Source of the DNA: Eledone cirrhosa
Taxonomy: Eukaryota
Assembly: GCA_964016885.1 (NCBI GenBank)
Contig: OZ024741.1
Coordinates: forward strand, 118,048,001-118,112,000
Direction of reading: 5' to 3'
DNA: 64,000 bases
A program made the position numbers and the translations under genes. The notes below the pieces were generated by a model. The model worked only from the letters and a program-made list of their open reading frames with translations. It was not told the origin of the DNA and did not search any database. This document shows positions 26,036-61,626 of the stretch, one piece after another. Positions within the stretch are counted from its first letter, which is position 1. Every line of letters starts with the position of its first letter.

Positions 26036-28954
26036 GTAGAATGGCATATTTTCTGTTATAGTGCACATTAATATTACATACTCCCTATTGCAATATCTCA
26101 TATTAGAACTATACTCTTTTCTACTACAATACTCACTATTGAATACTCACTAATATTGTATACTCCCTTCTACTACAATACTCAGTAGTACTGTCACTCT
26201 TTGGTAGTATTGTAAACATATTTAAATATTCATCAGTAATGGCTTTTGCTCAGTTGTATTTATGATAATAATATGAGGGCTAGCATGGATCTCCCTGAGC
26301 TCTATTACTTTTCTGATTCCAACTCAATGTTTTTGGTATTCGTTCCAATTTAACTATTTAGAATATAACAATTTTACTGACTTAAAACCAACTCTCTTCT
26401 TCATTTATGTAACCATTCCTTAACGTTTTTTTTTTTTTATATTTTTATTTTATATTTTTTATTACTTATTTATCAAATATATAGATACTTTCCATTGAGC
26501 TATCATTTCTCTCCTTTTTCCCCAACAGTTATCAGGAAATATGCATTATGCCAAATGTATCTCCATTAAAGTGATTATATCTATCATATATCCATTGTAA
26601 CAGGATAGTTCTTTCTTTTCCTTTTTTTTGTTTTGTTTTATTTTTATTTTACAACTTTCTCTTGAAAAATTCATTAACATTTTCAAACATTCAATAATTT
26701 TATCATTGTTTTCTTTTCTCTTTTGGGATTGTTAAGAATAAACAATAAACATTATTAAATTAATAAACATTATTAAATTAAAAATTTAATTAAGACCCCC
26801 CCCCCCCCCAAAAAAAATATATATATATATATACCTTTCTAAGTATTTCAGTGAAAATGGTAAAATGGAGAATGTTTATGGACTTCCAGCTGGGGAATAG
26901 CTGCTATCTATAACATAACTTTTCTGTATTTAAAATATAGCTATAGATTTTATACTAGGGTATATCAAAGTTAGGGAAAATGTTCTGTTTCTTTATTATT
27001 ATAACCAGGGTGGTTGATAGACAGAATCGCTAAAAGTTTTGGAAGAAATGCTTTATTCTAGCTTTTTACATTCTGAGTCCAAATCCCACCAAGATCAATG
27101 TTGCCTTTCATCCTTAAGGGGTCAGTCAATAAAGTACCAGTAATGCACTGGATTCGATTTAATCGACTTTCCCCTCCCCAAAAATTGTTGGCCTTGTGCC
27201 TAAACCAAAAACCATTATTATTTGGTTAATGAGAACAGTGGATTGGCAGGATTGTTAGTACTTGAGATGAAATGCGTTGCAGTATTTCATTACGACCTGC
27301 TATTCTCTGGTTTCAAATCCCACCAAGGTCAACTTTGCCTTTTATCTTTCCAGGGTTGATAAAATAAAGTACCAGTAAGATACCGGGTTCGATATAATTG
27401 AACCCCCCCATCACACATCACATATCACATACACAAATGTCTGACCTTGTACCTAAATTAGAAATCATTATTATTTGGTTAACGAATACATTTCATAACT
27501 CTTGTGGCTAATTTTGTTATTTCATTCAAAGGGATTTATAAATAAATCCTAAATATTTTCTAAATTACAATTCTTTATTTCTAAGGTTCCTGTTTGACTC
27601 TGTTCTCCATAGTGTCAAGTGAAAATCCACTCTTAGTCTGTTGCAGCTTTTCTCGTCAAAAGAACTAAATACAACACTGCAAGCCAAAGAAAGAAAAGAC
27701 ACATCAATTTGACACTTGCTGTAGTTTACAACAGGAAAAATTATACCACCTCTGGTACTCAATCATTTACAAGTTAGGTGGACTTGGGCATTCATTCAAA
27801 AACTAAGTGGATACACAATACTAAGACAGGATACAATTCGCTGAACCCCTTGGTCAGTCGTCCATGTAACCTATAAACTTCAGCACGAACATACAAAAAA
27901 AATAAACAACTATAACAGCCAAAAAACATCTGAATGAAACACAAAAAAAATCAACTGTAACAAGATTTAAAAGAAAACATCCCCTCTCCACCAAAATGAA
28001 AACATTTCTTTAACAATATCACGGAATTTTTTTCTATTAAAATAATTAAAGTGAAAAATCAAAACTGCTCCATATTATTATTGATTTCGTTTTTGTTTGT
28101 TTTAGGTACAAAACCAATTTTTATAATTGACAAAGGGAAATACCTGATTCAACTATGTCCAGTATATTATCTCTAAAAGGTGACAAATTGATTGAGTCAT
28201 TAAAGTACCAGGTGACACAATCTCGATATTCAATGGCGTGCGAAAAATGGTGCTCTATCGTTAGAAAGTAAATTTAATGCAGCCATGTATACGCAAGAGA
28301 AGAGTGGATTTGAACTTAGCACCGAAAGATAAGGAAATGGTCGTCAATTATACATTTTCCCACGAACTGTAACACGTTATTTTCTTAGTGATGTCTTATT
28401 TATTGTTATGTCAAGTCATTGAGAGTTACCTGCTCCTTGACAACGTTATACAGCATTGCTTCAATGGTCTGTTTACAACTTTCGCCTTGAAAATAATTTT
28501 GTAAAAAAAAATACATTTAAATAAATAGTAATTAGAAAGGATAAAACAAAAACAGGAGATTGTGTTAGTGCTGTAGAATTCAATTTACTTTATTGGCGTT
28601 ACTGAATACGGTCGGTTCGTTCGTAATATAGAAACACAAGTTCTAAGGGAATTAACTCTTTCATTTGCAACCGATTCAATACTGCTGCACAGACTTACCA
28701 TATATATATATAGATACACAGGATGTACCCCCCCCTCCCCCCCAAAATGTATACAGATATTTATTAGAATGCTGTTGAAGTGTGTATATATTTTGGAGGG
28801 ACACCCTGTGTGTATGTATATATATATTCAGGAGGACTGAATCTTTTCATATTACCCACTCTACTTCCCCAGGTATCGAATACTCTGGCGGGTTGTGGTC
28901 CACCTGGTATATATATATATATAGTGACGAAACATAAGTCAATTGCATGAACTC

Positions 28955-29205
28955 ATAATCCTTTATTTACTGCTATATATATTTCGATGATAGCCATTGA
29001 ATGGCTATGACCTCATCAGGCAGTTAGTCAGTTCTTAGATATGCCAGCTCTGTGTTTATGGTGATGACATATGTCCCAAGGCTCTGATACCATCAACACC
29101 ATAAACACAGAGCTGGCATATCTAAGAACTGACTAACTGCCTGATGAGGTCATAGCCATTCAATGGCTATCATCGAAATATATATAGCAGTAAATAAAGG
29201 ATTAT
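28955..29205. repeat. Perfect 109-bp inverted repeat with a 33-nt loop, Penelope pLTR-like
   Basis: 28955-29063 is the reverse complement of 29097-29205; (TA)n lies on both sides. Confidence 0.95.
29136..29191 (+). ncRNA. Type I hammerhead ribozyme (identical mirror copy on - at 28969-29024)
   Basis: ACUGC-CUGAUGA-GGUCAUAGCCAUU C AAUGGCUAUCAUC-GAAA-UAUAU-AUA^GCAGU. Stem I is ACUGC/GCAGU, loop 3 is palindromic, and AATAAA follows. Confidence 0.8.
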
Positions 29206-30410
29206 ATATATATATATACACACACACGGCAAATTGGCAGAGCCGTTAGAACGTCGGATAGAAATGCTTTGCGGTCGTTTCGGCTCTCTGAGTTCAACTT
29301 TGCCTTTCATCCTTTCTAACTCGATAAAAAAAAGTGTCAGTCTAGGACTGTAGTCAATTTTTCCTCTACATCTCTTTTCCACTTTCTATCCTTCTCTAGA
29401 AGAGATCTGCTGTATTCAGACTTAGAGAGGAGATGGGCTCTGGCAGGTTTTTAAAAATGCCCCAGAAACGCCGTGTGTCAATATGGCGCCCCTACGACTC
29501 CCTCGGGAGTTATGGGATCATACACATTTACGGTAATGTAAGATGCGACAAGTAATCACAGGTGTCAATACTTCATTACATAATTTTAAAAAAATTCGTC
29601 CTTCCTACAGTAAGGGCGAATGACAATGACGAAATTAATGACGATGATGAATTTAATATTGGCGTTGATACTGGTGAATTTATCGGGTATGATCGTTATT
29701 TCATTTCTTGTATTTTTCTCCATTATCAATTTTCCTCCAACAGTCACACGAAAAAAGACATATTGAATACTTTGACATCAAATAAATTAGAGATCAGCAT
29801 TGCAGAATAAGGAACTATTTCAGACACAAAAAATATAAAGAAAAAGAAAAGCTTTCTCCTGCTACCACCCCCCACGGTTTGTCAGTATTATTTTCTAAAT
29901 TCATGTTCTCTCTATCTATCTTTATCTTCTACAACAGAACAACAATACACTGGTACCGCGCTTAAATCGAATAACTCCATATAATTAAATTCCTAACTCT
30001 TATTCCACTTCTATTTAATTTTAAATGAATACCGTGTGTATTCGTGTAAAGTCGCGCCTCCGTTTTACATACAACGTACCATATATTTAGAACTAAGGTT
30101 TTGTAGGTCTCGTAGATATATCACACATATACATACACATGTATATGTGTCTACGGTTATATTTGTGTCTGTGTTTATGTCCCATAACTTAACAGTTCGA
30201 CAAAAGAGATCAATAAAATAAGTAGTGGGATCGATAAGATCAGTGCAGTACTCCAGCATGACCACGGTCTAATAAGTGAAACCTGTAAAAAAAATATAAT
30301 TTTCTCGACGTTTTTACCGACGGCATATACATTTAGCTAGTCAAGACAAAAAATTACAGAATTTTCGAATTCTGACAATATTTCCAGCAATGATCTATTA
30401 TACAATAGAG

Positions 30411-60477: not shown

Positions 60478-60550
60478 AAAGAAAAAGGGATGAAATCGAA
60501 AATGCAACTGAAGTCTTATTTTTTTTAAAAATATATATATTTATTTGGTT

Positions 60551-60588
60551 CCTTTACCGGTTTCGCAGTTCTTCTGCTTTTCAAAAGG
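60551..60588 (-). ncRNA. Minimal type I hammerhead ribozyme with a U3-A8 core variant
   Basis: CCUU-UUGAAAA-GCAG AAGAA CUGC-GAAA-CCG-GUA^AAGG, followed by AATAAA, at the 3' end of the PLE. Confidence 0.75.
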
Positions 60589-61626
60589 TGAGTTGAGATG
60601 GAGGGTCTGTGGTTTTTCTCACATCTGGTTGGTCTCTAAATGTTACTTGTTTTATATGGAAAAACTGGCTCGAAAACCAGGTTTTTCGAGAAGTAATTTG
60701 ATTGGTTTGTCAATAATTATAATAAATTTCGCGCCAGTTCGCGTTACAATAGTTCTTCAAATAAGAGAGGGGGGGGGGTGTCACAGGTTGTTTTTTCATA
60801 TATGAGTGTTTGAATTTCTTTTTACTTGAAACAATGAGGCTCACGAAGGCTTTTTTTTGGTTGGTTATAAATGAAATTTGGCTGTCACGTGAACAAGTTT
60901 TCATTACATTTTTGCGCCCTTATTTGGAAAACTATTCTGTAGTCTTTATAGTGAATGTTATGACAATGGAGAGATAGTGGTCAAGGGAAAAGGGATTGGG
61001 AGAAATGTTCTGGTTCAGTGAATATGGCCAGCTGTCAGAGTTCAGGTGTCAGAGTTCAGATTTTCTATTGAGACTGAAGATATGTGTTTATTTGTGTGCT
61101 TGTGTGTGTGTATATGTGTGTGTGTGTGTGTGTATGTGTGTATTGGAAGATGATTCTATTAGTAGAGATGGGGGAGGGAGTTGTGTGTGTGTGTATATGG
61201 GTGTTATGTGTGTGTGTGCGAGTATGTTAGATAGAGAGAATATATATTTTTTTTGTGTGTGTATATATATATGTGTGTAGGAAAGTGGTTCTATTAGTAG
61301 AAATGGGGAGGGTGTTGTAGGTGTGGGTTTTTTTATGTGTGTGTATGGGTGTTATGTGTGTGGGAGTATGGTTAGCATGTTAAGATGAAGAGAATATATA
61401 TATATATATATATATATTGTGTGTGTGTATGTGTGTGTGTAGGAAAATGATTCCTTTAGTAGGAATATTTTTGAATGAACATATTTTCCTGACTTTTTCG
61501 TGTTTGCTGTTGTATTGCCAGTGCAAACGTATGTTTAAGGTTTATTTAGTTCGGGTTTTTATTTTCTAAAGTAGGTGTTATGTGTGTGTGTGTGTATGTC
61601 ATATTGTGGTGTTGACATAATGTATA

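Follow-up and report, generated by a model that had tools for sequence, protein, structure and literature searches.

What kind of element leaves hammerhead-carrying hairpins crowded against (TA)n microsatellites? The question is raised by a 64,000-nt stretch of the genome of the octopus Eledone cirrhosa (assembly GCA_964016885.1, contig OZ024741.1, positions 118,048,001 to 118,112,000 of the forward strand; hereafter the window, with positions counted from its first letter), for which an initial annotation had proposed a Penelope-driven system of mobile fold-back elements. The window proves to be a real, dense nest of known insertion structures of Penelope-like elements (PLEs), together with two new non-autonomous families, and not a new system. 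The hairpins are, with very little room for doubt as to their PLE identity, truncated 3' ends of PLEs and two short non-coding derivatives, placed head to head in (TA)n. As a class they are ordinary PLE biology at very high density, and the interest lies in the rule by which their arms are paired: each family has two fixed 3' ends next to (TA)n, one with a tail of 31-150 nt and one without. We consider it probable that each head-to-head pair was made at insertion by two reverse transcriptases (RTs) that used the nicked ends of the two target strands as primers on a single RNA.

At 34% GC, the window is AT-rich animal DNA, and the assembly to which it belongs spans 3.0 Gb. After masking of simple repeats it contains 16 non-simple inverted repeats, of which 15 lie inside 28.9-60.6 kb, with arm identities of 82-100% in 14 of these 15. 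A (TA)n tract of at least 8 nt was found within 10 nt of an end in 13 of the 15, whereas (TA)n is no more than 15 nt away from 5.6% of the non-repeat positions of the interval (enrichment p ~1e-7), and all 11 positions that had originally been listed fall at or beside one of the inverted repeats; the claim of more than ten inverted repeats, nearly all touching (TA)n, is therefore borne out. It also extends beyond the window. Sixty 10-kb stretches (600 kb) at round coordinates on 21 contigs yielded 120 inverted repeats, a set that still contains satellite and SINE (short interspersed element) pair matches, and the outer end lay at most 10 nt from (TA)n in 36 of the 120, with 4.6 expected. The same 600 kb held 32 minimal hammerhead matches, compared with 0, 0 and 2 in shuffled versions. 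These densities (36 TA-anchored hairpins and about 28 non-satellite minimal hammerheads) extrapolate to roughly 10^5 of each in the 3-Gb genome.

Four PLE open reading frames (ORFs) of two clades are present, as had been annotated, one of them (element A) outside the 28.9-60.6 kb interval:

61627..63954, minus strand: element A, 775-aa Neptune/Nematis-type PLE ORF, with RT and GIY-YIG domains recognized by Pfam
36215..37373, minus strand: element C, 5'-truncated Neptune/Nematis-type PLE, with a minimal hammerhead at 36405 and a tail-less end on (TA)n
53906..57021, minus strand: element B, 5'-truncated Hydra PLE, with ORF pieces at 55226-56787, a tail-less end at 53906 and an inverted tailed copy at 56884-57021
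46084..47853, plus strand: element D, broken and 5'-truncated Hydra-type PLE, with a long 3' untranslated region (UTR) and a tailed end

The hairpins examined alongside them are listed below, without strand.

28924..29202: H1, head-to-head pair of 5'-truncated Hydra-type PLE 3' ends, with an intact minimal hammerhead in both arms (29019, minus; 29141, plus) and a 31-nt tail (28924-28954) on the short minus arm only
35223..35358: H2a, head-to-head pair of a 24-nt tail-less arm and a tailed arm
35414..35633: H2b, head-to-head pair with a zero-loop pivot and the tail on the right arm
37424..38118: H3, head-to-head pair built from a 441-nt tandem unit without coding sequence, with a tail of ~62 nt on the right arm
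40500..40833: H5, head-to-head pair of the element C family, with a 58-nt tail on the left arm and a damaged hammerhead at 40732, minus
40848..41133: H6, single head-to-head pair with its pivot at 40938/40939, an internally deleted tailed left arm and a U3-A8 hammerhead-like core in which GAAA is changed
41178..41735: H7, head-to-head pair built from a 515-nt tandem unit without coding sequence, its short left arm bearing a tail of 38 nt
41751..41845: H8, tail-less minus arm and tail-only plus arm, related to the H1 family
44612..45287: H9, head-to-head pair of the element D family, with a tail of ~150 nt on the right arm and a half core
53667..53882: H10, short segments of a further PLE-type end, present as inverted duplicates about TA tracts and joined to a 55-nt inverted copy of 57044-57098
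57044..57608: H11, head-to-head pair with a tail of ~81 nt on the right arm, a hairpin without a hammerhead core

Elements A and C carry a CX4CxxC linker and cysteines inside GIY-YIG, and together with their hammerhead and (TA)n ends these are features of Neptune and Nematis PLEs; the two elements appear to be of this type, although the linker and cysteine motifs leave the two clades unseparated. The translations of elements B and D and of the H1 family have a CxCX5C linker, CxxC and CxH near the C-terminus and no CCHH, as in the definition of the Hydra clade given by Craig et al. (2021; PMC8557442), and these three are accordingly best described, on motif grounds, as putative Hydra-type PLEs. 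Homology of element B to RT and GIY-YIG was established via element A, and the 3,715-nt unit of family B encodes a single RT ORF with a C-terminal GIY-YIG and with RWR and DKT motifs. This unit was read from L434 (G000:C1:154843500-154851400), a tandem of full-length units whose copy has stops and a frameshift.

Four hairpin families continue into ORF-bearing Hydra- or Neptune-type PLEs, so that the linking of arms to PLEs supports the PLE-driven origin that had been suggested. The 3' end of H1 lies ~1.35 kb downstream of a Hydra-type endonuclease ORF at two other loci (L037 and L003), being the terminus of the long 3' UTR behind that endonuclease. H5 belongs to the element C family, in which L118 combines an ORF with an inverted end and L101 is a 362-nt hairpin without an ORF. 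H9 belongs to the element D family, where 9 of 19 further copies possess an inverted arm that stops at the tail boundary, and element B itself is the ORF-bearing form of the same hairpin structure with a 3-kb loop. The ORF-linked hairpins are a continuum of 5' truncations of PLEs and not a separate class; H2a, H2b, H6, H10 and H11 have the same insertion signature, with no ORF linked. All insertion features of endonuclease-bearing (EN+) PLEs were found, namely partial tandems, an inverted 5'-truncated copy, a tail at one end and a (TA)n target. The proposal that hairpins lacking an ORF are non-autonomous units holds for at least H3 (441 nt) and H7 (515 nt), whereas several others are 5'-truncated ends of ORF-bearing PLEs.

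In the window, read by eye, each of the 11 head-to-head structures has one tail. When seven families were pooled, 42 head-to-head pairs could be classified and 35 of them have exactly one tail, borne by the long arm in 18 and by the short arm in 17; the loci of this set came from similarity searches and are biased. An unbiased set was obtained from exact tail-plus-TA patterns, with 1,097 matches for H3 and 412 for family B. The sample of family B comprised the first 90 of its 412 exact tailed ends by position, with the window copy excluded and with the TA tract of the reference masked (otherwise false 'other' ends are scored). Among these 90 copies, 15 ran off the extracted DNA, 15 were unpaired and 60 were inverted, i.e. 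60 of 75 classifiable copies. The inverted arm ended at the tail boundary in 54 of the 60 and elsewhere in 6, and in none did it carry a tail; 50 of the 54 boundary-ending arms lay next to (TA)n. Full-tail DNA queries found a tail-boundary stop in 0 of 23, but such queries miss arms ending inside the tail, and tail-end patterns were used instead.

Arm lengths in the 54 family B pairs are asymmetric in one direction: the tail-less arm is longer in 33, the two are equal within 12 nt in 14, and the tailed arm is longer in 7 (p 4e-5), so that the tail-less arm reaches further in 33 of the 40 asymmetric pairs. The tailed arm stops at or inside the tail in 17 of 54; these arms hold little beyond the tail, making them inversions without real duplication. 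Ten of the tailed arms stop between -12 and +10 of the boundary (p 0.005). Alleles of the two arms agree, with 6 of 264 substitution-site comparisons discordant against 104 expected (30 loci), or 40 of 450 against 177 when indel columns are included, which argues that both arms derive from one template; weak support comes from the comparison of arm with family divergence, in which 28 of 35 pairs were closer than the median. H3 shows this pattern less strongly: its first 30 matches were read by hand, of which 19 were inverted, 15 of them ending at the boundary, and the tail-less arm was the longer in 11 of 14 asymmetric pairs.

Both arms of family B also share a strong stop zone at -160 to -200 from the tail boundary (around window 54065-54105), at a predicted short hairpin; the zone could mark where an RNA begins or where structure makes synthesis pause.

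The mechanism to which these pairings point, twin priming, appears probable from the arrangement of the arms. The PLE endonuclease would nick both strands of the self-complementary (TA)n; synthesis would be primed by one target 3' end at the end of the tail and by the other at the boundary inside the element. The internally started polymerase would lead, while the one started at the tail end would stall at the boundary, trail by strand displacement, or stop at the same site, and the two complementary DNA (cDNA) ends would then be joined, mostly across short overlaps. Two primers on one RNA would account for the presence of only one tail, for the greater reach of the arm primed internally, for the boundary stop and for the symmetric pivots, where both reach the same run-off point. 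PMC11167929 reports that a Poseidon PLE cleaves and extends both strands in vitro, with two start sites bounding the tail and a predicted dimer, and the two-strand nicking and the two start sites agree with twin priming. The broader statement is about an even call: that PLE inversions in general arise through twin priming by a dimeric RT-endonuclease on one RNA, with one cDNA start at either end of the tail, in place of the published self-priming, and that the 441- and 515-nt units spread likewise and not by rolling circles. A literature search found no statement of twin priming for PLEs, with subscription papers, Repbase and supplements outside its reach.

Several observations pull the other way. 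In the pooled set, two tails were seen in 3 of 42 pairs and none in 4 of 42, although 3 of these 4 (H3: L112, L126, L152) are low-complexity false matches that were kept in the count. The tailed arm is longer in the 7 family B pairs mentioned, and the detailed counts come from this one family. In H3 the arm-length bias by itself gives p 0.057, and 5 of 9 allele comparisons are discordant, all at one locus. Family D is mixed (n=12; tailed arm longer in 5, tail-less in 6, about equal in 1), with a query that is blind to arms stopping inside the tail. PMC11167929 saw no start-site difference between strands and no primer-template homology. Finally, allele sharing would also follow from fold-back, from two RNAs of one source locus or from later conversion, and the 14 symmetric pivots suit fold-back equally.

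The main rival is self-priming with later trimming, in which one cDNA (or antisense RNA, a version proposed in PMC3846280) folds back or jumps and copies toward the element end, after which the endonuclease trims the tail from one arm. To its credit, the pivot is symmetric in 14 of 54 family B pairs, overlaps of 1-6 nt or more are seen at many junctions, the arms share alleles, and PMC8557442 ascribes the tail to endonuclease resolution. A fold-back copy, however, must nest in its template, and 33 of the 54 pairs hold the tail in one arm and extra body in the other, which excludes plain fold-back for them; with trimming added, the 17 tail-only or nearly tail-only arms would require a jump to the tail boundary over up to 3 kb (L379, L411). 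We therefore regard this rival as unlikely, though not negligible. Fold-back priming at self-complementary (TA)n, as initially suggested, does suit four TA-centred hairpins described below; in 11 of the structures, by contrast, (TA)n lies outside the hairpin and not at the fold.

Twin priming on two RNAs of one source locus, held together by protein or by a hammerhead dimer, is less probable still. Minimal hammerheads have a palindromic helix III and are thought to dimerize, according to Cervera and De la Pena (2014; PMC4209133), two discordant sites occur in 2 of 25 well-covered family B loci, and the pairs with a longer tailed arm would fit. Two free RNAs nevertheless leave unexplained the 0 of 60 two-tail pairs, the boundary stop of tailed arms and the tail-less lead, and H7 follows the one-tail pattern with half a core only.

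The idea that the palindromes move as non-autonomous units in their own right, having arisen by fold-back at (TA)n, is very improbable and largely refuted. An H1-like pivot does recur at 2-3 of 40 scored places, family B stops cluster at -160 to -200 and TA-centred hairpins exist, but pivots and arm lengths vary from locus to locus in every family, no fixed combination of ends and pivot is shared among loci, many copies are unpaired (a palindrome is absent from 9 of the 9 other top H1 copies), the same structure occurs in ORF-bearing copies (element B, L118), and a TA-centred inverted copy was found at 0 of 120 tailed ends.

An assembly or library fold-back artefact is hardly credible: no long read spans a whole hairpin, but the arms diverge by up to 18%, the ends are family-fixed and asymmetric, contigs of runs X1 and X3 (one sample of unrecorded library, possibly the assembled one) span the H5 pivot at single-copy depth within the 39100-41130 region examined, and raw short reads of two other samples contain joints with a strand switch in these families, which are likely to come from different loci.

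Head-to-head inversion, the one-sided tail, (TA)n targeting and minimal hammerheads have all been published previously, and the arm-pairing rule is the addition. A literature search to which subscription papers were closed found no earlier description of such octopus PLE hammerhead hairpins. The C-terminal EN+ PLEs of the Hydra clade, as described in the text seen of PMC8557442, share with B, D and the H1 family the linker, motifs, hammerhead, (TA)n, inverted 5'-truncated copy and one-sided tail. They differ in length, being generally <3 kb in contrast to the 3,715-nt B unit with its 1.3-kb 3' UTR, and in tails of 30-40 nt compared with 31-150 nt here. That text gives no counts of tail pairing or arm lengths, though its supplements, like those of PMC11167929, may hold these families or tail counts; it names the origin of tandem and inverted PLE copies an open problem. 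The one-tail rule, the tail-less lead and the boundary stop provide sharp constraints that can be tested in the existing in vitro system, and, if twin priming is correct, the ~10^5 hairpins of this genome would offer ready material for studying a step of PLE biology that is still open. The opposite-strand hammerhead pairs 100-700 bp apart in PMC4209133 are ascribed there to truncated PLEs, whereas those found here were traced to head-to-head insertions with the one-tail rule.

In L1 twin priming, two target ends prime on one RNA and generate a 5' inversion, with products that are mostly not duplicated. The tail-only arms described above represent the same product type. Unlike in L1, both primers would start here at fixed sites 30-150 nt apart and usually overlap, resulting in palindromes.

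The two non-coding families were examined for their relation to retrozymes. The H3 unit is 441 nt long, occurs in tandem arrays, has a longest ATG ORF of 47 aa and retains 35 of 39 hammerhead cores intact. In being non-coding and in carrying a type I hammerhead in successive copies of a tandem unit it resembles a non-LTR (non-long terminal repeat) retrozyme, although its motif is minimal and not canonical. L177 (G000:C6:48415297-48418550), with eight H3 hammerheads in 3.2 kb, partly at 441-442 nt spacing, is a candidate source array. The H7 unit is closed at 515 nt: among 33 loci no copy extends past it except into a preceding unit. It forms partial tandems, has no long ORF, and follows its half core with GAAA within 45 nt in 1 of 38 cases; lacking a complete hammerhead, it is classed as a non-autonomous PLE-type unit and not as a retrozyme. 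Both resemble the non-LTR retrozymes and non-autonomous PLEs of PMC7229834, bioRxiv 10.64898/2026.07.22.740005 and PMC8557442 (MRC1), but the complete insertion signature of PLEs, which comprises two ends, a tail, inversions and (TA)n, was not found in the portions of the retrozyme literature consulted. Being closed non-coding tandem units with that signature, H3 and H7 are read as non-autonomous PLEs that would use PLE machinery in trans, and they provide structural, not merely phylogenetic, evidence that short retrozyme-like units are moved by it. Against this, an autonomous partner was not found near the copies in the sampled loci, a search that was not genome-wide (3-9 chance neighbours, none contiguous).

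Minimal type I hammerheads were defined by the core CUGANGA...GAAA...UH (or its U3-A8 variant), helices I and II, and a minimal or palindromic helix III. A stricter descriptor matched the two H1 copies only and was then relaxed; the relaxed one has five window matches in four families (29019, minus; 29141, plus; 36405, minus; 37807, plus; and 60584, minus, with the U3-A8 core variant), as opposed to a mean of 0.1 in 30 shuffled windows. The H3 copy at 37807 is intact and its counterpart in the left arm mutated, and longer copies of the H2b family (L092) carry a hammerhead upstream of the H2b truncation point. Damaged or half cores occur at 35976 (plus), 40732 (minus), 41242/41713 (minus/plus), 44770/44948 (minus/plus) and 53988 (minus); the H7 hairpin has the first half of the core only. 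The annotated presence of minimal hammerheads in or near the hairpins thus stands for these families, with several hairpins lacking an intact ribozyme. These motifs share with the minimal metazoan PLE hammerheads of PMC4209133 the short helix I, the extra base before helix II, the minimal or palindromic helix III and the U3-A8 variant. Helices I and II are present in predicted folds, with weak z-scores (-1.1 to -2.2), and among the Rfam matches listed there was no hammerhead, the microRNA-like matches being confined to TA hairpins and all under the gathering score. The predicted ribozymes would be passengers of the terminal repeat. Two unpaired copies complete the set:

35891..36171, plus strand: unpaired tailed 3' end, a relative of element B, with a damaged hammerhead at 35976
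60547..60591, minus strand: unpaired minimal hammerhead with the U3-A8 core variant, whose counterpart is paired in locus L172

In the H6 family (window 40960-41000; L132, L172, L112), the hammerhead-like U3-A8 core has GCAA in place of GAAA in the window and at three other loci, a family-wide core change.

The TA-centred hairpins, in which inverted flanks surround a (TA)n tract, were seen at 4 of 85 window tracts, which is not a random rate since the window was chosen for such features, compared with 3 of 690 random tracts (one microsatellite match dropped) and none of the 120 tailed ends. They are short, end at non-standard points and often run into another TA tract; the one at L215 copies apparent SINE sequence. 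Those listed in the window are:

38009..38245: H3 3' end, copied locally in inverted orientation about a TA centre
41823..41961: TA-centred 23-nt inverted copy, stopping at a non-standard point inside the H8 tail, with an 11-nt direct copy
47823..48040: TA-centred inverted copy of 31 nt from the D end, followed, between TA tracts, by 58 nt copied directly from 46122-46179

At 47983 and 53828, nearby sequence has been copied, directly or in inverted form, by what looks like the same process. These hairpins are probably a separate repair by-product, rare, locus-specific and not mobile: a broken (TA)n end would snap back and copy 16-115 nt of its own flank, with the PLE endonuclease as a candidate source of the break. 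Snap-back templated insertions are known in end joining, with which the TA-centred hairpins share short locus-specific inverted or direct flank copies, bounded here by (TA)n.

An inverted duplication of 55 nt of the H11 end (53828-53882 and 57044-57098), 96% identical to the near arm and 82% to the far one, lies on the two sides of element B; B has either inserted into a TA-centred hairpin or produced one by inserting.

The neighbouring sequence includes a ~610-nt non-coding repeat set in TACA/TA tracts (38332-38945, 45367-45768, 52952-53550 and 59078-59694, with older copies at 57989-58988), whose copies are 94-98% alike and not palindromic, and which formed 11 clusters in 600 kb of random DNA. 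A 363-aa open frame on the minus strand at 43036-44127 encodes a Major Facilitator Superfamily transporter, so that the PLE nest probably occupies or adjoins a host gene. At 30714-32557 (minus) there are disrupted transposase-like frames that include a Spin-doc zinc finger, which we take to be probably a hAT-type DNA transposon. At 465-1460 (minus) there is a LINE (long interspersed element)-type RT fragment, followed at 1796-4613 by a 2.8-kb array with a 44-nt period.

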